Source: Eledone cirrhosa (Eukaryota). Taken from it: DNA of 64,000 nucleotides. The DNA lies in NCBI GenBank assembly GCA_964016885.1, contig OZ024741.1, forward strand, positions 59,086,001-59,150,000, given 5' to 3'. Positions 14,543 to 59,857 of the stretch are shown piece by piece. The notes beneath the pieces were generated by a model. The model did no database searches and was not told the origin of the DNA. It saw only the letters and a program-made list of their open reading frames with translations. Each line of letters begins with the position of its first letter. The stretch's first letter is position 1. Position numbers and translations under genes: made by a program.

Positions 14543-14613
<71 letters not shown>

Positions 14614-14623
14614 AACCAGTAAG

Positions 14624-14717
14624 ACCCCGACAGCTGAGCTCAAGCCGTTTCGACGGCTAATTCTGGACTAAATGAAAATTTATCCTGGTATTTAAATAGC
14701 CGATCTTCTCAAGGGGT
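14624..14717 (-). ncRNA. hammerhead ribozyme, U3-A8 core variant (inverted-arm copy)
   Basis: Reverse complement of 18240-18333. Confidence 0.8.
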
Positions 14718-17122: not shown

Positions 17123-17162
17123 ACTAGGGCTATAACACCCCACTTGCCGATTTTGCAATGGG
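17094..17162 (+). other. possible decayed SECIS-like stem-loop
   Basis: CCCAT/ATGGG helix I, ATGA.../GA quartet, GGGGT/ACCCC helix II with expanded poly-G, apical AGA rather than AAA. Confidence 0.3.
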
Positions 17163-18239: not shown

Positions 18240-18333
18240 ACCCCTTGAGAAGATCGGCTATTTAAATACCAGGATAAATTTTCATTTAGTCCAGAATTAG
18301 CCGTCGAAACGGCTTGAGCTCAGCTGTCGGGGT
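18240..18333 (+). ncRNA. type I hammerhead ribozyme, U3-A8 core variant
   Basis: ACCCC-TTGAGAA-GATCGGCTA...TAGCCGTC-GAAA-CGGC TTGAGCTCA GCTG-TC-GGGGT; GUC site after 18328. Confidence 0.82.
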
Positions 18334-18424
18334 CTTACTGGTTCCTATTACCCACTCTACTACCTCTAGTATTGAGTACTTTGGTGCGTTATGGTCCACC
18401 TGGTTCCTTACCACATTTCCTTCG

Positions 18425-26235: not shown

Positions 26236-26483
26236 TTACAGTGTGGGCTGGGTGCTTTTTTGTCATGACACCCATACGGCACTTTACAGTGTGGGCTGGG
26301 TGCTTTTTGTCATGACACCCATACGGCACTTTACAGAGTGGGCTGGGTGCTTTTTGTCATGACACCCATACGACCACTTTACCATGTGGACTGGGTGCTT
26401 TTTGTCATGACACCCACATGACCACTTTACAGTGTGGGCTGGGTACTTTTTTTGTTGTGTCACCTACACAACCACTTTACAGT
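26236..26483. repeat. ~47-bp minisatellite, about 5 copies
   Basis: TTACAGTGTGGGCTGGGTGCTTTTTGTCATGACACCCATACGGCACT repeated; a single-copy relative lies at ~40990-41045. Confidence 0.9.
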
Positions 26484-26807: not shown

Positions 26808-27324
26808 TTTGATTGTTGTTGTTGATGTTGTTATTGCTGCAGTTGTTGTTGTTGCTGCTGCTTGGTTGTTTTTGTTGTTGTTGCTGCTGTGGTTGTTTTT
26901 GTTGTTGTTGTTTTTGTTGTTGCTGCTGCTGCAGTTGTTTTTGTTGCTGCTGCTGCTGCAGTTGTTTTTGTGGTTGTTGCTGCTGTGGTTGGTTTTGTTG
27001 TTGTTTTTGTTTTTGTTGTTGTTGCTGCTGTTGTTGTTGTTGTTACTGCTGCAGTCGTTTTTGTTGTTGCTGCAGTTGTTTTTGTTGTTGTTGCTGCTGC
27101 GGTTGTTTTTGTTGTTGCTGCTGTGGTTGTTTTTGTTGCTGTTGCTGCTGTGGTTGTTTCTGTTGTTGTTGTTGTTTTTGTTGTTTTTGTTGTTGCTGCT
27201 TCTGTAGTTGGTGTTGTTGTTGTTGTTGCAGTTGTTATTGTGGTTGGTTTTGTTGTTGCTGCTGCTGTGGTTGTTTTTGTTGCTGTTTCTGCTGTGGTTG
27301 TTTTTGTTGTTGTTGCTGCTGTAG

Positions 27325-27372
<48 letters not shown>

Positions 27373-27840
27373 TTGTTGTTGTTACTGCTGCTGTTGTTGT
27401 TGTTGTTGTTGTTGTTGTGTTGTTGTTGTTGTTGCTGTCGTTGTTTTTGTTGTTGTTGCTGCTGTTGATGCTGTTGTTGTTGTTGTTGTTGCTGCTGTAG
27501 TTGTTGTTGCTGTAATTGTTGTTGTTGCTGCTGTAGATGTTGCTGTAGTTGTTGTTGTTGCTGCTGTAGTTGTTGTTGTTGTTGCTGCTGTAGTTGTTGT
27601 TGTTGCTGCTGTAGTTGTTGTTGTTGTTGCTGTAGATGTTGTTTTTGTTGCTGCTGCTGTAGTTGTTGTTGTTGTTGCTGCTGTAGTTGTTGTTGTTGTT
27701 GCTGTAGATGTTTTTTTTTGTTGCTGCTGTAGATGTTGTTCTTGTTGCTGCTGTAGATGTTGTTCTTGTTGCTGCTGTAGATGTTGTTCTTGTTGCTGCT
27801 GTAGATGTTGCTGTTGTTGTTCTTACTGCTGTAGATGTTG
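26808..27840. repeat. degenerate (GTT/GCT)n trinucleotide array with higher-order units
   Basis: About 1 kb of GTT/GCT/TTT/GTA triplets with recurrent 21-27-nt units. Confidence 0.95.
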
Positions 27841-32052: not shown

Positions 32053-32139
32053 GGTCACGTTCATTCCATATTTAATTATGGTCGGTATGTTTATGTTTTG
32101 GACATTTATTTATATACCGCTGTTATGTGCTCGTCATTA

Positions 32140-33429
32140 TCTATATATATAAAACTGTGGTTGTCTGTCTGTCTATCGATTTTTGGCACACATCTCCTCT
32201 TAGAATCTCTCACGGAATTGCACCGAAATTGCTATACTTGTACATTGAGCCCTAGCGAAGACATCGGAAAAAAAATATTTCAAATTGACCCACCCTATGT
32301 GACGAAATCGAATATAATGTATCGATTTTTGAGCGTAAGTTATCAGTTATTTCCCTTTGTTCTGTTTACATTGAGCGTCTTACGTAAAAAATTACGCTGG
32401 CTTTCTCAGCGTTTAAAATGACATTAACACAATACACGAACAGTTGTCGAGCCAGCAAAATATTGACCTGCAAAATTCATCAGTTCGAACACTAAGCTTC
32501 CGTTTTGCTTCATTTCCATCTAAAAGCATTTTAAAACAATATTTTTACTTGAAAACAAGTCTATTTAAAGACTACGTAAAACAAGCAAATATTTCGTCGT
32601 TAGGCGTGCAGACAGACAGTCGTGCAGACAGACAGTCGTGCAGAGAGGTGATATACGCGTGCAGACAGATAGTCGTGCAGAGAGGTGATATAGGCGTGCA
32701 GACAGACAGTCGTGCAGAGAGGTGATATAGGCGTGCAGACAGACAGTCGTGCAGAGAGGTGATATAGGCGTGCAGACAGACAGTCGTGCAGAGAGGTGAT
32801 ATAGGCGTGCAGACAGACATAACTGATAATTTGGTTACGCTAATGTTTTTCTCTGCGTTGCCGTGTTTACATTTTCGATCTTTGTTAATAAATAACCAGT
32901 GCAGTTTCTATCCCCAGCATCCTCTTTTGTTATAACATTCGGGTTATCGTTATGTTTTCTTAACTTCATAAGGCATATTGTTGGTTGAGGGAATATTAAT
33001 CAAAAACACCACATGCAAGTCTGCACAGTAGACACTACAGTTTTTAAGCCAAGAAAGAAACTTAACATTGTAACTTTAACACAGCTACTGAGCGACCCCG
33101 AGCAACGCCGGGCTTTACTGCTAGTAACTGATAATTTGGTTACGCTAATGTTTTTCTCTGCGTTGCAGTGTTTACATTTTCGATCTTTGTTAATAAATAA
33201 CCAGTGCAGTTTCTATCCCCAGCATCCTCTTTTGTTATAACATTCGGGTTATCGTTATGTTTTCTTAACTTCATAAGGCATATTGTTGGTTGAGGGAATA
33301 TTAATCAAAAACACCACATGCAAGTCTGCACAGTAGACACTACAGTTTTTAAGCCAAGAAAGAAACTTAACATTGTAACTTTAACACAGCTACTGAGCGA
33401 CCCCGAGCAACGCCGGGCTTTACTGCTAG
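32140..33429 (+). mobile_element. non-autonomous Helitron with tandemly duplicated 3' end
   Basis: A|TCTATATATATAAA start, (GTCT)n, hairpin CCCGAGCAACGCCGGG and CTAG|T ends at 33124 and 33429. Confidence 0.88.
32603..32818. repeat. 37-bp minisatellite inside the Helitron
   Basis: GGCGTGCAGACAGACAGTCGTGCAGAGAGGTGATATA, about 5.5 copies. Confidence 0.95.
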
Positions 33430-33864
33430 TATTAAATATATATATATAGGTACAGCTATTAGAATACTTCTTAAGTTATTAATTGAGAATATTATCATAT
33501 ACATAATTCTGTACAACACCTTTTAACTTATTAATGCATTCCACCTATAAATACATGTTCCCTTAATGTAATTCTCAAAGGAATTCAGCATGACACATCA
33601 TGTAACAAGGTTGACTCCTAGAATTACAGTAAAATGTAAAATAAAGTAACTTGTTTGTGTATCAAGTGCTTAACAATGACACACAAAGCACTTATGTACA
33701 TAATCATCTGGTTTTTGCATTGGACTTGGAAAACTATAAGTTTAATAAATATGAGATTGTTTACATGGTATCTGGCAGTTCTAGTGAATCCTTAAATTCA
33801 CAGTTGTATAAGAATATAGTAATATGATGCTTACAGGATGAAAACACAAACACATAATATATAC

Positions 33865-34998: not shown

Positions 34999-35226
34999 AT
35001 ATAGATAAATATAACACAGAATATATACCTGCCAAGAGTGAATATATAAACCAATAATTGTTTCTACTTTAGGCACAAGGCCAGCAATTACCCAGTGCAT
35101 TACTGATAAAATAAAGTACCAGTAATGCACTGGGTAATTGCTGGCCTTGTGCCTAAAGAAGAAACAATTATTGGTTTATATATTCCTTCTTGGCAGGTAT
35201 ATATTCTGTGTTATATTTATCTATAT
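34999..35226. repeat. near-perfect inverted repeat, 107-bp arms, 14-nt spacer
   Basis: 34999-35105 is the reverse complement of 35120-35226 with about 3 mismatches; includes a SINE 3' tail. Confidence 0.95.
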
Positions 35227-40495: not shown

Positions 40496-40650
40496 GAGAA
40501 TGGAAAACGAAAAATCAATGATTTTTTGGAACTCAATTTATTGTGTGTTACAATTGTTTCCCTGGTGAACAGCTCGAGGTGCGATCCATGTGTGGATCTA
40601 CCTGACTCTAGTCTTGCAGGTTCCTCGGACATGTCTATTGATTTCAGATC
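40496..40650 (-). mobile_element. ~155-bp hammerhead-containing mini-insert flanked by (TA)n
   Basis: HHR 40545-40632 on minus strand: ATGT-CCGAGGA-A-CCTG...CAGG-GAAA-CAATTG-TA-ACAC; homologous to 59091-59256. Confidence 0.75.
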
Positions 40651-41273
40651 ATATATATATATATATATATATATATAAAGGCTGTGTGGTGGTTAAGGAG
40701 TTTACTTCACAACAACGTGGTTCTGGGTTCAGTTCAGCTCTACAGCACCAGATCAAATGTTTTCTAATATCCTTGGCTTGACCAATATCTTGTGAGTAGA
40801 ATTTTTATTAGACAGAAACTGCAGAAGTCTGTTGTAAGTGTGTATACATGTATATATATATATATATATATATTTTTCATTTTTTTCATTTCATTTTACG
40901 TCCACTTTTTCCCTGCTTGCAAGGGTGGGACGGGAACTGATTCTGGCTTGATTTCTACAGCTGGATGCCCTTCCTAACACCAACCTCATTTACAGTGAGT
41001 GCTGGGTGCATTTTTTGCTGTGGCACCTCCACGACCACTTTACAGTGGAATGATAGGGACCCCAGTCCCTATTATCTCATTTCTACAGCTGAGTAAACTG
41101 GAGCAACGTGAAATAAAGTGTCTTGCTCAAGGAAACAACACATCACCCGGTCTGAGAATTGAACTCACAACCTTTCGATTGCAAGGCCAATGCTCTAACC
41201 ACTAAGCCATGTGCCTATATATATATATATATACACACATACAATGGGCTTCTGCAGTATATATTCACATGTA

Positions 41274-42521
41274 TACGATGCGCATCAAAAAAAGTATCCG
41301 ACTTTATTTTTTCCCTCGAAAATGTCACCTTGCACCCAAATCCTTTGGGTGGGAGGTGACACTACCCTTCTTGCATATGCGTGAAAATGTTCACACTGGT
41401 AGACCACGCCAATTCCCAGCTGTTACACCTAGAGTACAGATATGTAGTGTGTGCTCGTCAGATTTTTGTTTCCATGCAAGATGACTGAGCACATCAAGCA
41501 GAGATATTGCATCAAGTTTTGCCAAAAGCTTGGTGATACTCAAACCATCGGCTTTGGCGATGATGCCATGGACAAAACTCAGTTCAAGGAGTGGTACAAC
41601 TGCTTCAAACATAGCTACATCTCAGTGAATAATGAGGCATTCAGGCAGGTCATCCACAAGCTGAAATGTGGAACTGATTGAGAAGGTTTGGCAAATAATT
41701 ATGGAAGACTGTCGTGTAACAATGCAGGAAATTGCTCATAAAGTGGGAATAAGCACAGGATCAGTGCATTCTAGTTTAAAGGAGAATTTGTGCATGCAAA
41801 GAGTGTTGGTGAAATTCGTCCCCAAGTTGTTGGTGGAGCAGCAGAAGCAACTCCGCATGGAAATCGCTCACAACATGCTGGACTCTGCAAACCACAATCC
41901 AGACTCCATGAAGACTATCATCACTGGTGATGAGACATGGGTTTATTGTTATGACCTGGAAACTAAGTTCCAGTCCTCTCAATGGAAGTATGTTATCACC
42001 ATGGCCCCCAAAAGCACAACAGGTTCGCAGCAACGTGAAGGTAATGTTGACCTGTTTCTTTGACTCTTGTGGTATTTTTCATCATGAATACACGTCACAA
42101 GGTCAAACAATTAATAAGGAATCCTACCTGGAGGTTATACGTCACCTCTCTGATACTGTGTGGTGAAGAATTGACAACTTCACCATGACAATGTGCCTGG
42201 TCATTCTGCTCACATAATACAACCTTTTTTGGTAAGGAACAACACACCACTTGTTCGACAGGTTCCCTACTCTCTTGACTTGGCACCATGTGACTCCTGG
42301 CTCTTCCCTAATCTGAAAACAATGTTAAAAGGGAAGGTATTTGAGTCACGAGAGGAAATTATGAGAAAAGCGACTGCAAAACTTCATAGCATTCCAGAGG
42401 TGTTACCAGCAGTGACAGAACCGCTGGGAGAGTATTTTGAAAGCAATTAAATAAAATTTGTGAAATGTACAAACATTTTTTTTATGCCCAAAGGTTGGAT
42501 ACTTTTCAAACGCACATCATA
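41274..42521 (+). mobile_element. mariner DNA transposon, full length but degenerate
   Basis: ~28-bp TIRs with TA ends; QRYCIKFC, KFVPKLL, IITGDETWVYCYD, HHDN, PYSLDLAPCD (DD34D). Confidence 0.95.
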
Positions 42522-43771
42522 TGTATGCGTATGTGAGACAGAAAGTGTGTGTGTGTTTATGTTCATGTTTATGTGTTCCATAACGCAGTGGTTTGATAAA
42601 AAAGAGATTGATAAAATAAGTACCAGACTTGAAACAAAAAATGTATTTGTGTTGATATGATTGACTGAATCAAGGTTGTGCCCCAGTGTGACCACAGTCT
42701 AATGGCTGAAACCAGTAAAAGAATACAAGAATTACAAGAATACATGGAATGAAGCCTTGGTGTATTTTAGTTATATTGATTGACATCCTCATTACTGCTT
42801 GACAACATTGCTAGATCAGTTGTTTGAGTTTTATGATTATTATTAACTTGTAACGGAGATTCTTCTATTGTTAATCACAAGTGAACTAAGTCTGAGGCTA
42901 ATGGATATGAGATGGATCAATGAAGTCAACTTTAATTGAAAAATTTTGATTGATTCAATTAATAGCCATATCAATCATAATACTATGAAAGATAGCTTAT
43001 CGTTTCTTGCCTTGCAGTAGCTGTATACAGTATTGGCTCTTTATATCTTTATACATCTTTAGAGTTGGTCTTAGTCACAATTCCAATCCTATCTCTTTTG
43101 TGTGAGGCTAACATAATCATCGTTTTCTTTTTTAAATAAGATGTAAGAGCATATCTTCCTAATGTATATTATACTAGCACTACATTCAAATTTTCAATGG
43201 AAGTAAGGGTTGAATCTCTGTCAGTTCGGATGATGTGTATTCCATTTGTGTAATCAACAAGACAGGTGGCTCATTAAATTAATGTGAAAGTGCTTAGCAT
43301 TCCACAGACACGTGTACCTTTAATGTAATTCTCAGTGAGATTCAGCATGATTCTATGCGGAACAAAGGCTGGCCCATTGACTCACAAGTACAATTCATTT
43401 TTCCACCTAATTAAAGTTGAGTAATATGGAATAAAGTGCCTTGCTCAAGGACACAACACACCACCACTAATAAAACTCCCTATCATGAGACAAATGCCCT
43501 AACTACGAAGCAAGCAATGAACCTTCATATCAGTTGGAAGAGAAAACATATCAATACTTCAGTTTGGTTTACTATTTTTTTTCATTTTCTACTTTGGTGC
43601 TGCTCCAACTCTTCATTTTCCAGTTTTTATGGCATATAAAAGATTACAGAGACGAAAAATAGATTAGTTTCAGTAATGGTCAGCAACAATGACAATAAGT
43701 GAAAAAGTGTAACACTAAATAAATATTGAAAACTGTAACTAACAGCAGTATTATTGTGATTTATATATATA

Positions 43772-46700
43772 TGTAGTGACCTACATTCCGCGGGCTCACA
43801 TACATGCTATTTGCATGATTTGGCTCAGCTCAGCCAATCAGCGCCAGTAGAAGAGAATGTATCCCTACGCGCCCTAAGGGAAAAATTCCCGCGTGGATTT
43901 GAGAAATTTCTCTCTTGCACGCTGACTTCGAAAAGGTAAACACCTAACTTTCTTTCGTCGTGAAATCACTAGCCAACATGTAACAACAACTTAACCACGA
44001 CCTGGCAACACTTCAGCCAGTAGACCGTGCCTCCTCCTTCGTTTGTTTTATCTCTCTTGGCATGCCAGCTATTCAGCTCAACCTTATTAATAATAATCGT
44101 TGTCGATATTCCTAACATCTTACTACAAAACTGTTACCACAGCAATGCTTTAAATGTGATATGGAAGGATTCCTTCCAGAGGTATTATCACAGCAGCAAC
44201 AGAACCTGAGACTTACAGCCTAACCTTAATTCTTCGTGGTGATACATCTACTCTTAAAACCATCCTGTTAAAACTGGTGACCTTCGACGCAGGAGTATTT
44301 CGGCATGAAATGTTCCTTTACTATATATATATACATCAACCCAGTATTCTGTTAAAACTGGTGACCCCGAAAAAATGATAGGATCTGGTCTTGTGTGTAT
44401 ATAGAAAAAAGAAAATTAATTAGCAGTATTTAACAAAAACAAATTTTAAACACGAACACGAGGAAATTTCAAAATGGCTACCAACAAGTCCTCCGCAACT
44501 ATCAACAATTTGCAACCCGAAAGAACAAAAGAAGGAACATGCGGACATACTTTTCGTTGGGACACACTTTCTTCCACCTAACGTGGAATTCGGACACAAA
44601 TTTTCTCCGACAAACAACAAAAAACAGTTTCTCCAACGAACAATAACATTTTTCTACACCTCACGTGTTGTATCACCTAAATGTCTCACCTTTTTCTCGC
44701 TTACTCGTTCAACCAAGTTTTTTCCTTCTTCTTCATCAATCACATTCACAGTGAGAATCAAGATGGCCGACAGCTGCTTTCTTCTTTCATTTTCAGCAGC
44801 CATCTTGTCTTTCTCATAATTTTCCCGCGCAAAAGAATTTTTTTCAAGTTCAATTACCTTGTACCAGCACGTGTGTAGTGCACAAATCTCGACTTAAAGG
44901 GATACACACGCTTTGCTATTTCTTTTCAAAGACTTCACCAGCCCAAGCTATTTTTTTGCGACACTACAATGTCGTAAATTGGCGTTAGTTACTGTGCATT
45001 TATCCTGCATGCTCGTTTCAATGGTCGCAATTTCAACCGCAACACTGACCATCAATTTTAGCTGTTACTTCTGACACTTTGCGCAACACATTCTGGGATC
45101 TTCTAGCTGTGAATAAATTGTTTCCCTTGAAACAATTTCAAAAAGGTTACAATGACAACATTGGTTCACCACCAACCATAGACAACGCATGGTGAATTCG
45201 ACTTCGATTCTACAGAAGATTTACTGTGACTTTGCTTTGATAACAACAACAACAACTCTACTAGCTTCCTGGTAAGAGCGATCCCAAGGAAATTTCAAAG
45301 AAAAGAAAAAGCGAACTTTTTGTTAAAAAAAAACAATTTTTTCTTTCTTTCTCTTTTTACAGGCAATGTTCGGACATTTATTCTTTTAAAACTGTATTAT
45401 ATGAAAGTTCTTTTTTTATCATTATATATATGACTACACCCACACATTCTTTGCTGTATTACATGCCTGCATATGCACACACATTTCTTTGACACACACC
45501 AACATGTTGTTCTTAGTATATCATATTCAAACGTCGTAAAATTCTGCGAGATCCCTTCTCACTTTGTGGAGACACCAAACATGCTGTCGACATTTTGCAG
45601 CTTGATTCACCTGAACTCAAACAGGCACCGCAACACGAGAATGCTAATTGCAGCTGGATTCAAACAGTTCGCATCTCGTTGCATACTCATCGTCCATAAC
45701 AATCTCCATCTTGTTACTTTACCCGACTCACTGGGAAAACAACAAATAGAACTGGACCTGTCAGCATTTCCACCATTTCTATGGATTCGCCAGAATTATG
45801 GAATTTACATTTCAACTACTACCCACCTACAGATTCAACTTGCTTTTTTCTTTTCAAAGCAACCAGCCATTTTTTCCTGGCTGCCTAGCACTTTCGGCAA
45901 TACATCTGGGAGGCCGACATTTTCTTGCAAGCACTGGTAAACTACCATAACAGCTTCACCCACAGCTACTGGTACAGCACTTACCATTAACATTTAATGC
46001 AAGAACAGCAACTTCGCCCATGTCAGACTTTATCCGTTTTCTGTTAGACCCTTGGTGGTCACGTATAAACTACAAAACAGCTAGTCATTTGACACAGCGG
46101 CTCAACACGGCCCTTAGCGCCTCATTTTTCTGTTCAATTATTTTTCACTGATGTGCTCTTTCAGCATTTTTCCCTATAATAATCTGTATCGTCTTACGAC
46201 TAGAGAGGGAGTATTGTGGTGACCTACATTCCGCGGGCTCACATACATGCTCTGTGCGTGATTCGGCTCAGCTCAGCCAATCAGCGCCAGTAGAAGAGAA
46301 TGTATCCCTATGTGCCCTGAGGGAAAAATTCCCGCGTGGATTTGAGAAATTTCTCTCTTGCACGCTGACTTCGAAAAGGTAAACACCTAACTTTCTTTCG
46401 TCGTGAAATCACTCGCCAACATGTAACAACAACTTAACCACGGCCTGGCAACACTTCAGCCAGTAGACCGTGCCTCCTGAACTCTTAATTCGTTTGTTTT
46501 ATCTCTGTTGGTATGCCAGCTATTCAGCTCCACTCAGCTCAACCTTATTAATAAATAATGTAAAACAAGCAAAGTCGTTGTCGATATTCATAACATCTTA
46601 CTACAAAACTGTTACCATAGCAATGATTTAAATGTGATATGGAAGGATTCCTTCCAGAGGTATTATCACAGCAGCAACAGAACCTGAGACTTACAGCTTA

Positions 46701-46832
46701 ACCTCAATTCTCCGTGGTGATACATCTACTCTTAAAACCATCCTGTTAAAACTGGTGACCTTCGACGCAGGAGTATTTCGGCATGAAATGCTCCTTTACA
46801 ATATATATACATCAACCCAGTATTCTGTTAAA
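43772..46832 (+). mobile_element. non-autonomous Gypsy LTR retrotransposon (CsRn1-like, tRNA-Trp PBS)
   Basis: LTRs 43772-44356 and 46215-46832 starting TGT, PBS TGGTGACCCCGA, PPT AGAGAGGGAG; 1.85-kb interior with no long ORF; inserted in (TA)n. Confidence 0.88.
44359..44370 (+). promoter_or_regulatory. primer-binding site complementary to tRNA-Trp 3' end
   Basis: TGGTGACCCCGA immediately after the 5' LTR. Confidence 0.85.
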
Positions 46833-46844
46833 TATATATATATA

Positions 46845-47530
46845 TGAAACATGTAGGGAAAACTACGTATGCAGTAGATGTACAGGGAAAGTTGGCAGTA
46901 GTAATCGCAGTGATACACATTTTTCCAATGCAGGTGAGTTCTATAGAAGTGGTTGATAGCTTCTGGTACCTAGGTGATCAGATTTGCATTGGAGGGGGGT
47001 GTTCCGAGGCCATAGTTTCTAGAATAAGGATGTGTTGGAAGAAGTTTAGGGAGCTGCTTCTTTTGTTGACAAAGAAGGCTTTCACCCTGCATACGAAAGG
47101 CCGGTTATATGATGCCTGTGTGAGATGCGCGATGTTGCATGGTAGTGAGACATGGGCAGCGACAGCTGGAGAGAAATGAAGCAAGTATGCTCCATTGGAT
47201 GTGCAATGTCAATGTGCGTGAACAACCAAGCATAGATGAGTTGAGAAAGAAACTGTGTATAAGAGGGATAAGTTGTGGTGTGCAGGAGAGAAGGCTGAGA
47301 TGGTATGGACATGTGATCACTGGGTAAAGAAGTGCCAAGAAATCCCAGTAGAAGGAATTCGCAGTAGCGGTAGACCACAAAAAACATGGGCGGAGGTGGT
47401 GAGAGCAGACCACAGATCGCTGAAACTCACCGAGGAGATGACGAAGGGCCATGACAAGTGGAGAGATCTGAATAGGACCCGTCCAACCCATTCAAGCAGG
47501 GAAAAGCGGATGTAAAATGATGATCATGAT
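46845..47530 (+). mobile_element. 5'-truncated RTE LINE
   Basis: VVDSFWYLGD...GRLYDACVRCAMLHGSETWA...RLRWYGHV; ends AGGGAAAAGCGGATGTAAAA(TGA)n. Confidence 0.93.
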
Positions 47531-50500
47531 AAAAAAATGTTTAACCAAGTGAAATAAAAGAAAGGAGCATATTGTCAGATCATACTAAGAAAACAATGCT
47601 TCAAATGGTCTTTCCATTTTTGATACTATTTGTTGGTTGCAACTCCTGACAGAATTAAAGAGCCAATTGTTAGGTCAGATAAAGTAACAATGTTTCCATT
47701 AGTCTTTCCATTCCATCTGTTGGTCATAACTCCTGGCAGAAGGAAGCAGAATTTAAAGCTAGAACACACTGAGCCAGATCAGATACTGTAACTAACGATC
47801 CACTGCACTTTGGCTTGAATATTATTTATTGACCTCAAAAGGATGAAATCCAAGCTGTCCTAGACAAGATTTGAACTCAGAGTACAGTAGCCTGGGACAA
47901 ATATCAAGGCATTAAATCAGATGTCTTAATGACTCTGTGAGTCTGCTGCTTTTTTAAACATATGAAGGTGTAGAAATATATGAAAAGTTAACAGGTGATC
48001 TCTGATCAATGGCTTTATGATTCTGTGTACCTCCAACAGTAAATAGACCCAATGTATGCTGTATTGCCTGGTGTATTAGACACACTTTTTTACCCCAAAT
48101 ATCAATATCAAAATCTTAATATGTTCTATACACTGAGTATGAATAACACTTGCCCAAGATGCCATGCAGAATGATTGTAAATCAAATTCTTAACTGCTCA
48201 GCCATGCTGCACTCATGATACAGATATATAAACTAAGTAAACTGTATCTTCGAAAGAGTTGAAGCCTAGTCTTATTGATGAGTATCATTCCATTGTAGGG
48301 CTGAGTTCAAATTTTCAAGAGTGTTTAGAAAAGGGACCAAAGGAATCATGAAAAGAAGTAGTGCAGACTCTTTGTGATGTCTTCAAAGTATCAAGGAATT
48401 AACAAGAAAGAAAATAGGGATTAAGTTGATATCCCAAAAGAGATTTGTTTCCTCATTTTACTTTACTTCAGGGAAAACAGAAATAAAAAGCAATTTCTGT
48501 TGCCATGAAAATAGGAACAAATTTAAATAGTAATATAAAAATATTAAGGGAAAAAATATTTATATTGAATTTAAACAATGTTACATTAACGTAAATTAAA
48601 TCTTGGTATTTTTAACAATTTAAAAACAAAATCTTTTATCATCATTGGAATTTTTTCTTTCCCCATACTCTACTTTCAACAGGATCTCTACAATTTAAAA
48701 AGAGGAAATTACAAAGGTAGAATGTAATTCCAAAGCAAGAATAATACACTTTAATCGTGTGAAACCAATGTTGAAGTATTAAAATAATGCACTTTAATAC
48801 TATAAAAGCCCCCATAAGCCCTTTACATGATGACAACATGAAGATTATTGGTTGAAAATCGATTTAGGATGTTTTAGATTTTGTTTACATTTTTGCATTC
48901 CATCGTCTTTCACCAGAATTTGTATTAAAGATATACTTAACTACTGTATTATTTTAAATCTCAGAGCACTTAACTGCAAACACATCTACACTATTTCATT
49001 TTTTTGCGCCTTTGTTCTGTTGTTGAGGTTCTAAATTCACTTGGCATTATTTAGGGGTCAGATATACTCAAACACTCTGTAAGGTGGTAGTGTTGGTGCC
49101 ATAGTAAAATGCACCTACCCCACTCTGTAAAGTGGTCTCGAATACACCCCCCCCTTATTAATTTTTCAAATTTTTTTTCCACTCCCACCTCCACTTATTG
49201 AATTTTTCTAATCTAGCTATTTTATTTTAAGTGTTAGCACTCCTGAGATAATTAATTTTTATACATTAAAATACATTACACATGACAAAAAAAGTACATT
49301 ACTAGAAGTCTGATATGTTATAAAATAAATAGGATGGGTTAGGATCTCAATATTAAAGTAAACAACTAATTCTGGTTTTTAAAAAATCAATGGAGACAGC
49401 CTAAAAAATCTACCGAGCCCCCCCCCCCCCCCTTCGTTTTTTCAACCCCTTGCATTTATCAAATACTTCCGAATTTCCAATTATTTTCAAAATGATATGA
49501 AATATATAAGCAGCGCATTTCATTAGAAATAGAGAAACAAAAGGGTTGCAGCTAGTTTGAACAGAAAGAGGTGAGAGAATTCTGGCCAGATATGGCCAGT
49601 TTAAATGCTAAAGGGTTAAGGTAAACATGTCTGTGGAATACTCACCCACTTACTCTATAGTACAAGATGGATTGTATCTAATTCACAGAGCCAACTTTGC
49701 CACATACACTGTGTTATTCTGAATTTCCCTGATAACTACATTAGGGTACACATATTTGTGGAATACTCTGTCAATTTAATGAGTTGGCCATTTCATTGAA
49801 TGAACAAATAAAACACTCATCATTAAAACTGACACTTTAGTTTAAGAGCGTGTTAATTGTTATCAATGTTCTTATTTCAATGTTTAGTAATTATATTGAT
49901 AAACACAACTCAAGTGTTGTTATTAGAATTTATGACTATCATAATTTATTGCAATTTAATAACATTTATTAATGAACGTTACTTTGAACCTAAATATATT
50001 ATTTTATAATAATTATTTAAGTTTTACTATCATTTTTAATTTAATGGCTATAAAATTACATTATCCAAACAACTAAAATCTTAACCAAATAAGTAAAAAC
50101 ACATGGTTGTCGATAAATCGACTCTAATGTAAACAAGCACAGATAAACACTGCTGTTACTACAAGCTGTAACAATGGAAAAATGAAAGCCAAATAGACTC
50201 CATAACTAAAGTATACACACACAGGATGAATAAACAGTAGCAAAAATCTATAATAATAAATGAGAATTTCTGTACATGAATCCGTATGGATTTCTGGCTT
50301 TGGGAAATATAAATAAATAAACAAAAAACCAAATATATCGTTGCAAGTTTGTAAAAAATGTTGCTTTCTATTATAGGATTTCTACTTTAGGAACAAGGCT
50401 AGCAATTTGGGGCGACTCCAATATTTGACTAGTGCTTTATTTTATCGACTCCTAGAAGGATAAAAAGCAAAGTCTGCTTCAGTGGGATTTTAATTAAGAA

Positions 50501-50619
50501 TGTAAAGGGCTGTAACTAAATACCACAAAGCATTTTTCCGATGCACTAATAACCCTGTCAATACACAGTAAATAGGAATTTCTGTTTTTGTTCAGATAAC
50601 TTTCTGCCTTCGACAGATA

Positions 50620-51270
50620 TACTAGGGTCATTTGAAAAGTTCATAAGCTGACCAAGATGCTCTCATGGAATGACCAAATGAGGTTTATTTTTCAACATAG
50701 TCCCTGGAAAGAAACAATGCAGTTATTAATAAGAAGAGTTGAAATTAATGCATGCAAGATTTCACAGTCAGTCTATAAACTTTTCCGCTGACTCTCATAT
50801 GTATTAGATTTATGAATTAAAGTAAGTAAACTGCAAAACGAGATATGCCATTGCAAGCCCGTATTGTTCTCCCGCCACGAACGAAATTTTCCCATTTGAT
50901 TATAAATGATTAATTACACTGTGTACTCCTGGAATAGAAACTATGGAGTATCCAAGGGTTGATAAAAAATTGATATATTTAAAAATCAGTACAAGTTTGA
51001 ATCTCATTGAAGGTACTGGGGCAGTTTCAATCATGTTTCTGTTTATTACTGGTTCATATCTCATGCTTACTTAATTACAAGGGTTGGCTAAAAAGTTCAT
51101 AGGCTGACTCTGAAGAACTGACGCTAGAGCTGTGAAATCTTGCATTAAATTCAAATCTTATTAATAACTGCATTGTTTCTTTCCAGGGACTATGTTGAAA
51201 AATAAACCCCTTTTTTGTTATTCCATGAGAGTATCTTGGTCAGTCTATGAATTTTCAGCCAAACTTTGTA
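50620..51270. mobile_element. two copies of a mariner-type MITE in inverted orientation
   Basis: 50620-50799 and 51076-51270 are reverse-complement homologues; TA ends, TIR core AAAAGTTCATA.GCTGAC. Confidence 0.8.
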
Positions 51271-51669
51271 AGATGGGGTCACCATTTTGTAGAGAATAAA
51301 TATCAAATTAAATAAACTGCAAGATGGAATATGGAGGTTTGTATAATTTACATGTAAAGATGTTTTTCCCTTTTCATATATTTGTATACACTGATTAGGT
51401 ACATTGTGAAATACACATACTCACAGAAAGCTGCAGTATTTTTGCTAGTTTTTTTTATATTTTCCAAATTCAAGTGTAGATTTTGACAGATTTATGTTTT
51501 TGTTTAAATTTGCCATTTATTTTTCTTTATTATTTTTTAAATCAATATTTTATTTGATTTTTGAGTCCTATAATTTCATTGGCAAATGAAAAATGATTAT
51601 TCTACTTTTGTAGTATTTATAAACATTTTGATAATAAATCAAAATATACCATTATTATTATGATTATTG

Positions 51670-52205
51670 TTTTATGTTCTGAGTTCGAATCCCACCGGGA
51701 TTAGCTTTACCTTTCATCCTTACGGGGTTGATAAAATAAAGCACTGGGGTTGATTTAATTAATTTTCCCCTCCCCCAAAATTGCTGGCCTTGTGCATATA
51801 GTACAAATCATTATTATTATCATTATTTTAAATATAGGGCAGTGAATTGGCAGTATTGGTAGAGGGTTGGACGCCATGCATTCTAGCATAGTTACGTCCC
51901 TTTACGGTCTGAGTTCAAATCCCGCCGTGGTTAACTTTGCCTTTCATCCTTGCGGGGTCAATAAAATAAAGTACCAGTAATATACTGGGTAATTTCTGGC
52001 CTTGTGCCAAAAGTAGAAACAATTATTTTAAATATTGAGTTCAAATCCTTCCGAGGTTAGTTTTGCTTTTCCTCCTTATGGAGATGATAAAATAATGTAC
52101 CAGTAATGCACTGGTGTCAATTTAATCGAATTGCTGGCCATGTGACTAAATCAGAAACCATTATAATTAGGGTGATGGATTGGCAGAGTTGTTAGAGCAT
52201 TGGAG
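51670..52205 (+). mobile_element. head-to-tail cluster of four SINE copies/fragments
   Basis: B box + CTTTCATCCTT.CGGGGT..ATAAAATAA body three times, plus a head fragment. Confidence 0.85.
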
Positions 52206-52329
52206 AAATGATTAATAATTGTTTCTACTTTCCCTTTCTTTTCCAAAAGTAGAAACAATTTTCATCATTAGTTTTAGTTTTATTGCAAGCTTAAACTGTA
52301 TTGCTGAGCTGGTAGTGTTGTTTGTATTG

Positions 52330-52720
52330 TATTAAAAGTTCTCTGTGTAATATGCTGTAGCTAGTAGTACTATATATTGTATATATTTAAAATATATGGA
52401 CCATGGACATTTGGTTATGTATCTGCCTGTGAGTTTTTTATCATTCCCAGTGCACCTATTATTATATTATTTTTTATAGATATATTGTTTTCTGTGGGCA
52501 TTGATACATCAATTAGGAGGCGTTTCTTTTCATTGTGGTCTTTTACTACAATATTTGGTCTGTTAGTTTTGATCTCCTTGTCTCTGTGAGTTGGTATATC
52601 CCAGAGTCTGGTTTCTTTGTCATTGTTTGACACCTTGTCTGTTTGTACCACCTTTTTTTCTGTTGGTATTTCATTACACTGGCATAACCTCCAGTGTATG
52701 TAAATCCCAACTCTGTTATA
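52330..52720 (-). mobile_element. R4/Dong-like restriction-like endonuclease fragment
   Basis: LWDIPTHRDKEIKTNRPNIVVKD...LLIDVSMP..NNIS...IIIGALGMI. Confidence 0.8.
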
Positions 52721-53817
52721 TTGTTATTGTTGTTGTAGTAGTGACTGGGCAGTCCACAGATATATGTACTTTTAAGATAATTCTCAGGGAGATTCAGCAT
52801 AACTGTGTGTAATAAGACTGGCCCTTTGCATTACAGGTATAGCCCATCCAATAGGATTCCAAACAGTTTCCATCCACCCACTCATAATATATGGGTCAGC
52901 TCAAGACAATAGTGAATAACACTTGTCCAAGATATCCCACAATGGGAGGAAACTTAGGACCTAAAGATTGCGAGGCAAACTCTTTAATTATTTAGCTATG
53001 CTACATCCACTATAGTAATAGTAGTAGCAGAAGCAACAACAACAGCAGTAACAACAACGATAGCAACACCACCATGAACAAAATCAACAACAACAATGAC
53101 AATAGCAGCAGCAGCAACTTTTAAGTCCATTATAGAAAGATAGAATGCATTGTATGTTTAACTGCCTATGTTAGTTCTGAAGTATGATAGTTCGGTCAAC
53201 ACATTTATAATGCCACTTTAAAATGTAATGCTGATATTACAGAAGATAAGTGCTTTCATAAAATGTTTTTTTTTTCCTTTTGTGATGTAATTATATTTAA
53301 TGGAACTCGTCCCAGAAAGCTATTTAACAAAGTTAAAAATGAAAAAAAAATGGAAAAAAACTAAAAGACCTCAAAGCTTTGAAAGGAATAATTGAAGAAC
53401 TATTTAGAATATTTCAAAGAACTATGTTAACAGAACAACAACAACAACAGCAAACATCTTAAGGCCATTTCCCATGCTAAACAGGGTTTAACCTTGCAGG
53501 CTCCATGGCAAGTTCTATTTACTCCATCTTGTTTTTCTGAAATAGAACAAGATCAAAACAAAGATGTGATACAGAGGAGCAAGAATAGTTATTAGGAAGG
53601 TCACAGAATGTGTGCCGAAAGAGCTTTTACAATCAAATAAACAACCATCTGGTTACTAAACTAACCTAGAAATGGATTAGTTAACCAACTAATAATAAAG
53701 CTGAAGTGAAACTCAACAAGTATATGTGTAACATGAACCTATCAAAGTATAACAGTATCTGTTTCAACACACACTTTCATATCAAGAATCTTGCAAAGCA
53801 AATACAAAAATGAAATA

Positions 53818-54291
53818 TACGAAAGTCCGGTTATATGATGCCTGTGTGAGGTGCGCGATACTGCATGGTAGTGAGATATGGGCAGAAACTGCAGAGGACA
53901 TGTGACGGCTAGAGAGAAATGAGGCAAGCATACTCCATTGGATGTACAATGTCAATGTGCGTGAACAACCAAGCATGGATGTGTTGAGAGAGAAACTGTG
54001 TTTGAGAGGGATAAATTGTAGTGTGCGGGAGAGGAGACTGCGATGGAATGGACATGTGATGCGCATGGAGGATGACCGATGGGTCAAGAAATGCCAGTTG
54101 AAGGAAGACGTAGTAGAGGAAGACCATGAAAAACATGGGCGGAGGTGGTGAGAGCAGACCTCAGATCGCTGACGCTCACGGTGGGGATGATGAAGGACCG
54201 TGACAACTGGAGAGATACTGAATAGGACCCGTCCCACCCTTGCAAGCAGGGAAAAGCGGACGTAAAATGATGATGATGATGATGATGATGA
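53818..54291 (+). mobile_element. 5'-truncated RTE LINE
   Basis: Closely similar to the 3' end of 6210-6700; (GAT)n tail. Confidence 0.93.
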
Positions 54292-54834
54292 TATATATAT
54301 ATATATGTACTGTATATAATCAAGTAATAGTCAATCTCATGTAAAAGCCGACTACCTATTTTTGGCACAAAATCTGAAATTTTCCATAGACCTCATATAA
54401 AAGTTGACCCTAGTATTTCACAGATAACAGGTCAACATTTATGGGCCAAGGTATCATCCTGTACATAGTAGAAATAACACTGTTACAAATTATTTTGATA
54501 TTTGCCTTATCTTTTGTGGCCTTAAGCTACACCAGGGTTGTTCAACTTGGGCTGTACTACTCACTATTGGACGTTTTGAGATATTAGATGGGCAGTGTCA
54601 TGACTAGTAACAAATCAATAATGTGTGAAATAGCATATTTGAAAAACGTTTTTTGAATTTTATGTTTGGTAGGAAGAGGCATGCTTCTCTCACTTTAAAA
54701 TAGGCTAAAATGGGTAATAAGCAAAAAAGGTTGAATACCACAGATCTACATTGAATTTATAAAAAAATAAAAATGCAACAAAGAAATTAGTAGTCACTAA
54801 TCTAGCTATGAAGAAGACAACATTTTCGGTGGAG

Positions 54835-55501
54835 ATTGTTAGTACTTTATCCAAGAAATTTGGCTCAATTTTGAATCTTTTAGCAAAGCCTGATAAATTT
54901 CCAACAGGTTCGCATTTTGCTCTACAAACAGGGTGTTTGGGCACTAGTTTTGCACAAATTTTTTGCATGTGCAAATGTTCTGTTAAAATTCTGTGAACTG
55001 CATTTTTATCCAAGCCCGTTTCTTCTGTAATCATCCTAACACTTAATCAGAGATCTTTTTCAATCACCGCTCTCACCACTTCCATATTTGGTTCATTTTG
55101 TTGACGAAATTAGCCTTCCAGAATGAGGTTTGTTTTCAACATTTTCTCAATCCTCTTTGAAAAGAATATGCCACTTAAAAACTTTACTTCTCAATAAAGT
55201 TACATCTCCATAAGCTTGTTTTGAAGAATTAAATGTTTCGATGGCAAATTTGTTGAGTCTTACACAAAATTTGATTGCATTCTGTTGTTTGAAATTTTCC
55301 TGTATCGCAAACATAACAGAGGTTATAAACACATCTGTACTTAAACAGCAATAAGTCATGACTGACTCAATCGATCATGTTGAAAAAAGTATGTACATGT
55401 AGCCAAGGTCATAACCAACACACCTATATACATCAATGCGGTGCTGCATTACCAAGTCATACATAGGAAAATCAGTACCCTTACTTTTGGAAGAAACCTC
55501 G
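54835..55501 (-). mobile_element. mariner transposon 5' half
   Basis: QQNAIKFCVRL...AYGD...VFKWH; VHRILTEHLHMQKICAKLVPK; TIR-like CGAGGTTTCTTCCAAAAGTAAG. Confidence 0.88.
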
Positions 55502-55899
55502 AAATAACACTTACACCTTTAATAAAACATATCACTCTCCATCTATATTAATAATATAAACATAAATACATAAGTACACAAAAACTACACCTTAACAAAA
55601 AAAACAAAATATTTACTACAATCATCCATTTATACATAAACACAAACAAATAAGACACTTTAACAATTATAATTACAGTTGCAACGTAAACACATGAGTT
55701 GCTCTCTTGAATAACAAAAACACAAAATTATTATTACATCATGATTAACTCCCTTACACTTGAGATCTCATGTAAATGATGTCGGCCATATTGGTAATGC
55801 CTGATAGATCAGCAATACTAGCACATATGCGATCTCTAAGGCCTATGCAAGAGTAGACTTTGAAACCTTAGGTAGCATGCAGCAGTGTCGAGAATTTAC

Positions 55900-55947
<48 letters not shown>

Positions 55948-56832
55948 GTATGTATATGAGAGAGAGAGAAGAGAAAGAGAGAGATCCATGATTTCTTATT
56001 TAGTGGTGTATGGTAAACAATAGGTAGGCAATACCACACATCTTTAGAACAGCCGTGCAGCCATACAGCAAACAACAGAATTAATGTAAAAAATGCAAAA
56101 GCTAAATTTATTTTATTATAGTAAGTTAATATGTTATAGATACTCAAACACATTCATTAGTAAAGAACCAGTTTTCAAGAGTCACATATTTATTCATCTT
56201 TATTGTGTCAATCCCAAATCAGTTCAATAGATCATCCACTATAATCACGGAATCTAACAATTGATTGATTACTAGTAACTATGGGGCGAGTTATTGATCT
56301 ATTAAATGGGTCATATTAAAAGCCTGGTTTAACTTAATGTACCAGTGATATCATGATTCACTGATACCCTTCCAATGACAATGACAAATTACTATTTTGT
56401 ACTCGTTAAAGGAAAAGCCATTAAGATTTCCATTTTATTAAATGGCCTGTATGTTAACGTTTCACCTGATTTGGTTTGTATAATACATCATATAACCTTA
56501 TTTTATAAATCTTTCAAGGTGTCTTTATAACAAGACAACTCCTTGGTCAGACTGTTTTAGCTTTTTTGTTTATTTAAAAAATACTTTTGCCGTTTTGAAA
56601 TGAAGAAATCAAATGGACAAACAAGAGAAATGATATCAAACTATTTCTACTTCACTATCATAGCTTTTAACACTTAATGTCCTGCACCGCATGAAATCAA
56701 ATTAGCAAAACATTCTTGTAAAGTACAAAACAGCATTATGACTGCATCACATTAAATATTAAAATGTTTTCTCTAATAAGACAAATTTTCACAATGATCT
56801 GCCCATTAGTAAAGATACTATAAACATTTTAA

Positions 56833-57229
56833 TTAACTCTTAACACCCTATAATGATTTACCAGAAAATGTCTAAAAATGATTTTGTTAATTCAAATCAT
56901 TTTGTCTGCTTTTCATGCTGGCATGAGTTTGATGGGTTGTCATGGTCCAAGAGCAGATGAGTCGGAATGACATCATTTTGCTAATAGATTCCATATTTGG
57001 CATGGTTTCTATGAATGCATGCCTTTATCAATATCCTTTTTATTGGTGGACAGATTGTTGTGATAATTTTTGGTGTTAGAGAAAAGACTTCAATTTTTAA
57101 TGTGATGTATTGTAATGCTGTTTTATACTTTTCAAGAATGTTTTGCTAATGTGGTTTCATGTGGTACAAGAAATTGATAATTAACAAACTTGTATCTTCT
57201 GCTAAATTATTACAGGATGTTAAGATTAA
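56833..57229. mobile_element. TTAA-flanked MITE with SINE-like insertion
   Basis: Imperfect ~35-bp TIRs; body homologous to 4905-5110. Confidence 0.65.
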
Positions 57230-57397
57230 GAGAATGTCCAAGAAAATATAAAGTCAGTTATAGACTTTTTATCACCATTCCTAATTTAAATACTGCAATT
57301 CTTCCAATTTCTATGTTATCTGCGATAATAGAAATTTTACATACGAGTTTTGATTTACTTTGACAAACGAAAAACCATTAGAATTATTAGCATTGTA

Positions 57398-57444
<47 letters not shown>

Positions 57445-57835
57445 CATCATCACCATTATCATTATTATTATTATTGCTGCTGCTGCTGCTGCAAATAACA
57501 GCCAAAGTTAACATTAACAAAGCAAAAAATGGACAATTCCCCAACCCCCTACGTTTTCTTTTTTTTTTTATTATTAATACAGATATCTTTTGTGGTTTCT
57601 AACAAGAACCAAGATATAACCAAAATACATACCTGCAATGTTTCCAAGCAGTAATCGTTATTTGGTTTTTACTTGAAGACTTTCCTAGCTAATCATAACA
57701 AAGGAATCAATATGAGGTTGTGAAGGTAATTTGGGGGGAAATGGGAAAAATATCGATTATTTGTAAATTTCAAATGAAACAGGTGTCCATGAAAACACAG
57801 AACATGCTGAGTGTCTTTTATATGTATATGTTTGT

Positions 57836-57880
57836 GAGTGTATATATATATATGTATGTATATCATCATCCATTTTCCAT

Positions 57881-57917
<37 letters not shown>

Positions 57918-57946
57918 GTATGTATGTATATCATCATCCATTTTCC

Positions 57947-58017
<71 letters not shown>

Positions 58018-58053
58018 TATACATATATATATATATATATATATATATTATAC

Positions 58054-58111
<58 letters not shown>

Positions 58112-58225
58112 ATCATCAATTTTCCCTGATATATATATGTATGTATATATATCATCATCCGTTTTCCCTAATATATATATATACATTTTTATATATATCA
58201 TCATCAATTTTTCCTGATATATACA
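57836..58225. repeat. compound satellite: ~25-bp motif alternating with (TA)n
   Basis: TATATCATCATCCATTTTCCCTGAT, 5 copies separated by variable TA runs. Confidence 0.9.
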
Positions 58226-59022
58226 CACGCATGGATATTGATCAGGTGGAAGAGAGGTGCTTGATATCAAACATATATTATTCAATATAAGACACTCTGT
58301 ATGTGTCCCTGCCTGAAAGCCAAATTCAATCATTTCCCCCAAAAAACAAATCATCTGATTGTTAGCTTTTTGTATGTTGAATGGATTCTTTTCGTCTTTT
58401 ATATACCTCTTCCTTTTTTTGTGGAGAGGAACTAAAAAATATATTGAATAACTAGAGAACCTGTACTGGCAATAACGTTGAACATATTTAATTTTTGGAG
58501 TTCACAATATATACCAGAATTACTGGAGAGGTGAACAATCATTTGAACTGAGAAATTTGTGTTTTGATAAATTAATGATTTGCATTAGAGAAACCCCATA
58601 GTTTATGCTCATTGCTGAGATACTGAAAGTCATATATATGAGGATTACTGGATATATGAACAATTATACAAACTGGGAAATTTGTGTTTTGATAAATTTA
58701 GGGCTTGCATAAGAGAAAACCTATAGTTTTTGTTGATTACTGATGTGAAAGTTATTGTAGCAGCAACATGACTGAGATAGGAAGTATATTGGGTGTATGC
58801 TTGTGCATGTGTATGTTTGTGTGTGTAAATTTTAAAGATTTACAGGTGGAGATATATATAAATAAATACACAAACACACATGGTGCATTATTATGGTTGA
58901 TAACTCAATATTTTATTCTTTGGTTCAGAGCAGCATAGTACTTCTTATATCCCTAAGTCTCTCAGCCTCTCTATCCTTTATACATGTATAAATATATATA
59001 TATATATATATATAGAAGAATT

Positions 59023-59090
<68 letters not shown>

Positions 59091-59094
<4 letters not shown>

Positions 59095-59255
59095 GAAACT
59101 CTGCTTCAAAGGATTGAGATGTGTCTGAAGAACTTGCGATTTCAGAGTCAGGTTCGATCATCACATCGATCGTGCCTTGAGCTGGTCGCCAGGGAAACGA
59201 TTGTAATATGTCTAATAAATTTTCGTCGCACCACTGATTCTCCATTTCTTATGTG

Positions 59256-59256
<1 letters not shown>
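59091..59256 (+). mobile_element. ~165-bp hammerhead-containing mini-insert flanked by (TA)n
   Basis: HHR 59117-59213: AGATGTGT-CTGAAGA-A-CTTG...CAGG-GAAA-CGATTG-TA-ATATGTCT followed by AATAAA. Confidence 0.82.
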
Positions 59257-59286
<30 letters not shown>

Positions 59287-59857
59287 CACACACATATACA
59301 TATATAGATACACATACACATATATATATACACACACATATATACATATACACACACACATATATATTTATTAAAATAACAGATTAAAGTTTAAGCAAAG
59401 GTACGTATATATTACCTGTATGTTTTGTGAAGGTACTTATACTTTCTCATACGTATATTTGATTGTATATGTTATGGCGTATATTTTTATATATTCTGGT
59501 ACATATGCTTTTGGTTATGTGTATACGTGAGTTTTGCGTCTGTGTGAGTATGCGGGTTCGTACGTATGTAGGGTGTGTGTATATGTGTACTTTGTGTTTT
59601 GGTTGACGTACGTCTCCAAACATATGTGTATTTACATGTAGGTATGTGTGTGCGCTTGTTATATACGTATTTATTTATTTATATACGTTTATTTAATTAT
59701 TTGTATACACACACACACATATATATGTGCGTGTATTTGTTTACATATGGCGAGTGTTTTCGCGTATGCTTGTGTATGTATTTTTAATTTCAATTACCTC
59801 TGTATTTTATTTACTTTATTCTTAACTCTGAAGCCGAGAATCATTCGGTTTCCTAGT

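Follow-up and report, generated by a model that had tools for sequence, protein, structure and literature searches.

Short hammerhead inserts in (TA)n tracts of the Eledone cirrhosa genome as probable 5'-truncated ends of two PLE families with a preferred break point

In this study we asked what kind of element has left two short ribozyme inserts in a stretch of the Eledone cirrhosa genome. The window, which is the whole 64,000-nt stretch analysed, carries at 40496-40650(-) and 59091-59256(+) two sequences that consist of little more than a hammerhead domain, and these could be either a small mobile family of their own or the remains of something larger. A sequence-only reading of the window had described the two inserts, here copy A and copy B, as diverged homologues bounded by TA repeats, and both descriptions hold. 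Each copy is embedded in TA repeats, and a search against the window aligns 66/85 nt of them (78% identity, E 4e-13). Their global alignment scores 135, against 48+-7 and a maximum of 78 in 500 shuffles. The features of the two copies are listed below, and positions such as -116 are counted throughout from the predicted cut after GUA.

40496..40654, minus strand: copy A, very probably a 5'-truncated 3' end of PLE family A (91% over 158 nt against the 3' end of the long copy L208)
40622..40628, minus strand: 5' strand of the copy A hammerhead core, CCGAGGA, a U4C variant (sequence comparison)
40561..40621, minus strand: long stem II region of copy A with apical GAUC hairpin (alignment and pairing counts)
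40549..40560, minus strand: GAAA and short stem III of copy A with palindromic CAAUUG and the predicted GUA cut site (sequence; both stem III pairs in 42/42 copies)
40537..40542, minus strand: AATAAA of copy A, a putative signal (sequence)
40651..40677, no strand: (TA)n target beside the 5' end of copy A (repeat content)
59090..59256, plus strand: copy B, very probably a 5'-truncated 3' end of PLE family B (86% over 176 nt against the 3' end of the long copy L112)
59125..59131, plus strand: 5' strand of the copy B hammerhead core, CUGAAGA (sequence comparison)
59132..59193, plus strand: long stem II region of copy B with apical GAUC hairpin (alignment and pairing counts)
59194..59205, plus strand: GAAA and short stem III of copy B with CGAUUG and the predicted GUA cut site (sequence and pairing counts)
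59214..59219, plus strand: AATAAA of copy B, a putative signal (sequence)
58979..59091, no strand: (TA)n target 5' of copy B (repeat content)
59256..59350, no strand: (TA)n/(CA)n run 3' of copy B (repeat content)

The landmarks of copy A on the minus strand are the core at 40628, GAAAC at 40560, GUA at 40549 and AATAAA at 40542, and those of copy B on the plus strand are the core at 59125, GAAAC at 59194, GUA at 59205 and AATAAA at 59214. Both copies show a type I hammerhead layout with a two-pair stem III, a palindromic C(A/G)AUUG loop III, GUA and AATAAA, and the extended stem II with its hairpin is found as it had been described. About 62 nt separate the core from GAAA, including the GAUC hairpin, each pair of which is formed in 36-40 of 42 aligned copies. 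This pairing alignment comprises the two window copies and 40 of the 59 long copies with an intact core, and our core statistics come from the 175 copies with a readable core out of 281 domains collected. The CUGAnGA / GAAA / NUH core with stems I-III that marks a type I hammerhead is present. The GUA site is found in 172 of the 175 copies. The layout reported for copy A thus stands, and its core carries the U4C change that the sequence-only reading did not mention. U4C occurs in 39/175 copies, including those of the young family A, and in an older subfamily at least six distinct copies, read by eye, carry U in place of A6; conservation of the core is thus not strict.

The inserts had attracted attention through an extra A between A9 and stem II, described as conserved and as an insertion known from a viroid hammerhead. 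The A is present in both window copies, but across the 175 copies the base at this position is A in 63, C in 58, U in 52 and G in 2, and an unpaired base between 9 and 10.1 is described in the text of PMC4209133 as a general trait of metazoan PLE hammerheads, which leaves the A neither conserved nor special. The CAGG strand, which forms a clean 4-bp helix in both window copies, is present in 11/175 copies. Two registers of stem II are both possible, and the one with a mismatch at its foot fits better: it gives 95.4% paired cells in the 42 copies, with a U-A/C-G change in 16 of them, against 91.1% for the register used by the sequence-only reading, whose first pair is broken in 24/42. The best-fitting hammerhead register has three pairs with changes on both sides and slid controls are 21-62% paired, a pairing support that comes from few independent subfamilies. 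A paired G10.1-C11.1 was not found, these positions being paired in 7/42 copies in one register and 18/42 in the other.

Neither window copy has the hammerhead as its lowest-energy fold, and neither is more stable than its shuffled versions (z -1.14 and +0.35). An Rfam search at E<=1 returned only microsatellite-driven microRNA matches and no hammerhead, and a relaxed search of the window for hammerheads, in which 4-bp stems still had to be perfect, gave zero matches, which shows this search to be too strict since it missed both copies as well. RNAalifold favours a rival helix in which the core pairs with the 3' side of stem II. This helix is 96.9% paired, and both of its strands have changed at U4 and at the base following A9, figures to be read with the fact that it was derived from the alignment that scores it and that few subfamilies underlie it. 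Depending on the subfamily, either the hammerhead or the rival fold lies near the minimum in per-copy energies. We suggest that the core-pairing helix may be a lead to follow, and do not present it as an established result. We rejected a coding role for the ribozyme domain: although a reading frame runs through it without interruption, in both families an in-frame stop precedes MEKF, the start that homologues share.

Searches of the 3.0 Gb genome in 1796 contigs show where the domain belongs. The flanks of the 60 best matches share 5' extensions of up to 1.1 kb. For family B, a query taken 1.5 kb upstream of one copy led to loci that run into GIY-YIG and then RT, and in 20 loci extended to 10 kb the shared 5' starts step outwards from about 1.4 kb to beyond 4 kb; this set is biased towards length because it was picked for carrying the upstream segment. 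For family A, the upstream walk reached L208, which has the same order of parts, and the long copies of A and B share 75% identity over 919 nt of RT. The link to an ORF-bearing master, suggested in advance as something to search for, is thereby provided by long relatives with RT and GIY-YIG in both families. A query with the 5' part of the RT recovered the other junction as well: ribozyme domain, 80-nt tail, then the ORF start MEKFQY. The long relatives therefore read as a ribozyme domain with its 80-nt tail, the ORF, 1.7-2.2 kb of non-coding sequence and a further ribozyme domain. On the 3' side, copies end at either of two points, about 50-55 nt or about 135 nt beyond the predicted cut site. 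Pseudo-LTRs with a hammerhead, inverted 5'-truncated partners and an optional tail, which belong to the PLE trait set, are all present.

The ORF has the motif order MEKF..RWR..DKT..RT..CxCX5C..GIY-YIG. No intact ORF was seen, every long copy that we read being broken or truncated, and in L112, L098 and L208 the RT and GIY-YIG are broken but collinear, in the order kept by intact homologues. Pfam matches to GIY-YIG are below the cut-off (E 0.004 and 0.01) and the RT fragments have no Pfam match. A protein search returned 51 relatives, the best being 44% identical over 97% of the query, and the three that we inspected (P0001, P0008 and P0011) share the motif set. The parents have the DKT motif, a C-terminal endonuclease and, near the N-terminus, RWR at the expected position of RWK, where P0008 and P0011 have RWK and P0001 has RWR. 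When the parents are compared by eye with the text of PMC8557442, their linker CNCRVGEECP / CNCRVGTQCP fits CxCX5C, CKLC..E..N..CRH gives CxxC and CxH around E and N, and the GIY-YIG core has a single Cys and no CCHH. At 4.4 kb or more from the DKT region to the 3' end, the parents exceed the length of less than 3 kb that is typical, though not strict, for Hydra. Their motifs fit the Hydra clade, an assignment made by motifs and not by a tree with named Hydra sequences. We conclude that the inserts are very probably the 5'-truncated 3' ends of two sister PLE families of about 4.5-5 kb with Hydra-clade motifs.

The lengths of the copies form a range of 5' truncations. The genome holds 1815 exact matches to a 31-nt degenerate motif that covers both families, which sets a minimum for the copy number, and none to a control. 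We sampled 60 copies in genome order by a 3'-terminal motif, 30 of 414 B matches and 30 of 189 A matches; some of these are the two partners of a single insertion, and for three A copies, whose sequence begins at the search motif, the start position is censored. Their 5' ends span +19 to beyond -450, and 12/60 reach -150 or further. An inverted partner is found in 28/60 and a tail in 23/60, and 0/60 start within 3 nt of the cut site. With a rougher method, 92 copies from the first 100 core-motif matches listed extend over 40 to 1459 nt; 80 of these were re-measured, 12 being removed by length and duplicate filters. Copies of long ORF-bearing elements thus stop at all lengths, from within the ribozyme to more than 4 kb upstream, the very observation that had been named as refuting an independent family. 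Of the proposals in the sequence-only reading, extremely truncated Penelope copies is the one that our results bear out, and 'ribozyme-only' describes the two window copies and not the family, which has long ORF-bearing relatives.

The main alternative is that the 165-nt unit is a non-autonomous element in its own right, SINE-like or a retrozyme, itself transcribed and mobilised in trans. Several observations point this way. The 5' ends are uneven and pile up sharply at -109..-120 (22/60 and 31/80 copies), as they would in a short independent family, and this counts against the truncation reading. Moreover, 11/22 copies at this hotspot stand alone with neither tail nor partner, as the window copies do, and truncated ends exceed ORF starts roughly 25-fold (2493 and 1763 against 81 and 92) when counted as first-look candidates, which are not copy numbers; the 2493 (B) and 1763 (A) come from DNA searches in which 40 of each were scored. 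On a tree of 225 domains (122 short, 90 long and 13 intermediate, unlabelled) the short and long labels change 61 times against about 68.5 when shuffled, and 15/500 shuffles are as low, which amounts to slight clustering. Yet every subfamily on this tree contains both short and long copies, so that the short ones have no clade of their own. Tails are found on 5/22 hotspot copies of the 60-copy sample and on 26/99 of a mixed selection, in which 62/99 end in a dinucleotide run; copies with a tail were made from RNA that continues towards the ORF and not from a tail-less stub. The ends of the unit do not match the cut site (0/60), and no poly(A) tails were seen in the flanks inspected. Against a retrozyme in particular, close pairs within 700 nt in 226 loci are inverted in 43 cases and on the same strand in 2, so the tandem arrays that had been looked for are nearly absent, and tandem hammerhead repeats define retrozymes in the available text of PMC7229834 and bioRxiv 10.64898/2026.07.22.740005. 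The reading is therefore largely refuted already and we consider an independent element very unlikely. Since the clustering is slight and the tree poorly resolved (4/222 branches strongly supported), small stub-derived lineages could hide within it.

Mobilisation by Naiad, or descent from it, has practically no chance of being right: it shares the (TA)n targets and its remnants are recorded for Octopus in the consulted part of the PMC8557442 supplement, but Naiad has an N-terminal endonuclease, DKA and no canonical hammerhead, and the different domain order of the parents, with C-terminal endonuclease, DKT and Hydra-clade motifs, refutes such an origin.

If the inserts are truncated PLE ends, their preferred break point asks for an explanation of its own. 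In the samples of 60 and 80 copies, the next 12 nt downstream of the hotspot hold 5 and 8 5' ends and the next 12 nt upstream 0 and 3 (binomial p about 4e-7 and 1e-7 for the hotspot against the two flanking 12-nt bins). About six in ten of the copies that reach -109 stop by -120. The hotspot is stronger in B (15/30) than in A (7/30), and its distance is the same in subfamilies whose local sequence differs. Copy B, with its 5' end at -116, lies on it, and copy A, with its end at about -103 to -106 and an edge that is ambiguous by about 4 nt within the TA run, falls just short, so that the start point said to be common to both inserts is partly real and belongs to a genome-wide hotspot in one case only. 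A report of a truncation hotspot in PLEs was not found in the open-access literature.

The repeats upstream of the ORF behave differently. There are 45 distinct ORF-start loci, 24 of which have an upstream repeat that reaches -109, and by eye only 2/24 stop by -121. Terminal copies stop at the hotspot in 53/86 cases (Fisher p 4e-6 for the contrast). At least four copies occur in both of the samples that make up the 86, and the ORF-linked repeats are older as a set, their count within the matching subfamilies being 1/13. It follows that the hotspot is not a general block to an enzyme that has run a long way, and that long templates do not start there.

One explanation, to which we give close to an even chance, is that the 5' end of an RNA is fixed at about -116 by transcription start or processing, and that reverse transcription starts internally, runs off this end and yields a short copy, like a strong-stop product, that integrates. 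A fixed end would account for an upstream edge that is hard (0/60 in -121..-156) with a ragged downstream side, for the start counts (24 at -116, 20 at -115, 14 at -114 and 12 at -112) and for a position that is constant across differing subfamilies, in each of which it lies at or within 1-2 bases of a pyrimidine-A step. Short duplicated pieces and switches to the inverted copy at the hotspot junction, and a ribozyme domain that adjoins the ORF on its 5' side, are also in its favour. The difficulty is that the ORF-linked upstream repeats should then begin at the hotspot too, which 2/24 do compared with 53/86 of terminal copies. A fixed RNA end survives only if the long copies derive from a different RNA that begins further upstream, and the simpler proposal that all transcripts start at -116 is contradicted by the 2/24. 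An untemplated G was not seen by eye at the junctions.

Another explanation, a real possibility though short of likely, is that the enzyme stops at -116 only if it began in the same folded domain, where a closing helix or a bound protein blocks it. This accounts for the contrast between 2/24 and 53/86. When 181-nt copies are folded, the hotspot and the 3' end often pair, and averaged over 190 windows -120 ranks third among the partners of the 3' end. In longer context, however, the 3' end pairs best with the hotspot in 0/60 copies, and most of them give the hotspot a pairing probability close to zero, so the closing helix is weak and we only weakly keep it as the cause. That the hotspot is due to something else altogether is unlikely. 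A 3' splice site was considered and rejected, as AG is missing from this position in the commonest B subfamilies and inspection by eye showed no joined exon.

Taken together, these results suggest how the inserts might have arisen. The element's own protein would likely cut the (TA)n tract and copy only the last 160-170 bases of an uncleaved RNA. In the text of PMC11167929, Poseidon cuts AT-rich DNA, begins reverse transcription internally at two sites that define the tail and uses uncleaved RNA as its template. By analogy with Anolis Poseidon in that text, the two 3' ends seen here would mark two sites at which reverse transcription starts internally, and insertion would not require cleavage by the ribozyme. 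At the hotspot the enzyme would either run out of template, at the 5' terminus of a short-leader RNA with a 3' end unable to prime long copies, or halt because it had initiated within that domain. The two window inserts would then be dead by-products. A bolder version, which is tentative and rather doubtful, holds that hundreds of hotspot copies are integrated run-off from the 5' leader of the element RNA and mark its transcript start, most insertions coming from internal initiation near the 5' end, and that the hammerhead is kept mostly off by the rival core-pairing helix, with changes that compensate at U4 and at the position following A9.

The two sister families are new, the kind of element is already known and no new class of mobile element is needed. 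Truncated PLE ends are common and the inserts are therefore ordinary; the exception is the preferred break point, whose cause we infer. A sharp truncation point in terminal repeats and not in ORF-linked ones is a clue to how these elements begin and end reverse transcription, which is still poorly understood. Long-stem hammerheads such as these are missed by Rfam and would likely be missed by standard descriptors too. That subfamilies with an altered core have nonetheless spread is relevant to the question whether the ribozyme is required in the first place.

Among the systems with which the inserts can be compared, non-LTR retrozymes are also short, non-coding and PLE-related with a type I hammerhead in the text available for PMC7229834 and bioRxiv 10.64898/2026.07.22.740005, where they are head-to-tail repeats cut to monomers and circles. 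The copies here are solo or inverted, and they differ from retrozymes also in passing gradually into full elements and in having ends that do not fall at the cut site. Anolis Poseidon, as far as PMC11167929 describes it in the text consulted, is closer: it has copies with or without a tail from two internal start sites, which would also apply here, a hammerhead near the ORF start and no products that start at the cut site. It belongs to a different clade. Unlike in Poseidon, the ORF here likely starts about 190 nt downstream of the cut site and the tail measures about 80 nt, and the fixed 5' stop seen here is not reported for it in that text.

The minimal hammerheads of metazoan PLEs resemble those of our families in being type I, with a long helix II and a short palindromic helix III suited to dimers, and in occurring mostly as single truncated copies with some close pairs on opposite strands (PMC4209133, in the text available). 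Stem II is several times longer here, and the G10.1-C11.1 pair that is conserved in that description is absent, its place being taken mostly by A.G, C.A, A.A or U-A. The available text of PMC8557442 and PMC4209133 describes inverted partners, tails, (TA)n targets and widespread single truncated hammerheads as traits of PLEs.

The closest comparison is with the Hydra clade as PMC8557442 presents it in the text available to us, which includes Hydra-1_Obim. The differences are a length of about 4.5-5 kb with 1.7-2.2 kb of microsatellite-rich 3' non-coding sequence, against 1.1-3.0 kb in recorded Hydra elements, RWR in place of RWK, a core-GAAA spacing of about 62 nt in place of about 12-25 nt and U4C in the young family A; the hammerhead sequence of Hydra-1_oBim also differs from those of our families. 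As here, stem II of many recorded Hydra hammerheads carries at its foot one additional base on either strand. Common to both are a single ORF with C-terminal GIY-YIG, DKT, CxCX5C and CxxC/CxH around the catalytic E and N, as well as (TA)n targets, a 3' hammerhead, inverted 5' partners and tails.

In the aligned ribozyme-domain copies (alignment A1), columns 46-59 pair with columns 104-116 in a predicted rival helix that would sequester the catalytic core. This helix shows compensating changes at the core position U4 and at the base that follows A9. An older sister subfamily is represented by the upstream repeats, the ribozyme-domain copies 5' of the ORF start, at ORF-linked loci (L390-L393, L406, L413, L415 and L417). 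The core of these repeats reads CCGUCGA or similar, which combines U4C with a change at A6. The repeats nonetheless keep the ribozyme's 3' half, a pattern which suggests that the older subfamily spread without a working core.

The window itself contains two Penelope-like (PLE) insertions with inverted arms, together with other repeats and transposon remains:

6209-8628: LINE-type reverse transcriptase (RT) fragments, with partial copies at other window positions
10989-14463: second Penelope-like insertion, with inverted arms of 1.26 kb, 97% identical
12549-13366: endonuclease fragment enclosed by these arms
14609-18348: further Penelope-like insertion
15603-17027 (+): RT and C-terminal GIY-YIG endonuclease domain with the CxCX5C linker motif, between the inverted arms of 14609-18348
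26813-27821: (TTG)n array of 1 kb
29455-32152: broken non-LTR-type RT ORFs in a GC-rich block
32621-33431: tandem repeats with 37-nt and 305-nt units, after the broken ORFs
34999-35226: near-perfect inverted repeat (228 nt, 94%)
41152-41209 (-): tRNA-like match, at 28.1 bits slightly below the Rfam cut-off of 29

The 1.1-kb arms of the 14609-18348 insertion are 98.9% identical to each other, and by this measure we regard the insertion as fairly young. Its 3' repeat holds only a hammerhead-like remnant, read by eye near 18245-18335. The inverted repeat at 34999-35226 is likely a small inverted-repeat transposon, and its microRNA matches in Rfam are sub-threshold. The tRNA-like match lies upstream of a repeat (40934-41047) that recurs at 26180-26291, and probably represents the tRNA-derived head of a SINE. 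A putative mariner-like transposase fragment lies at 41665-42063.

Elements of the sister PLE families A and B are often inserted within or beside other PLE copies in the same TA tracts (flanks of L098-L117; L050; L228), including A adjoining B. Short hammerhead-bearing stubs with sequence unlike either family are also nested in (TA)n, at L057 (oriented 350-470) and L119 (about 560-620), and one family of such stubs has numerous inverted partners. This genome holds several families of short hammerhead-bearing PLE ends.
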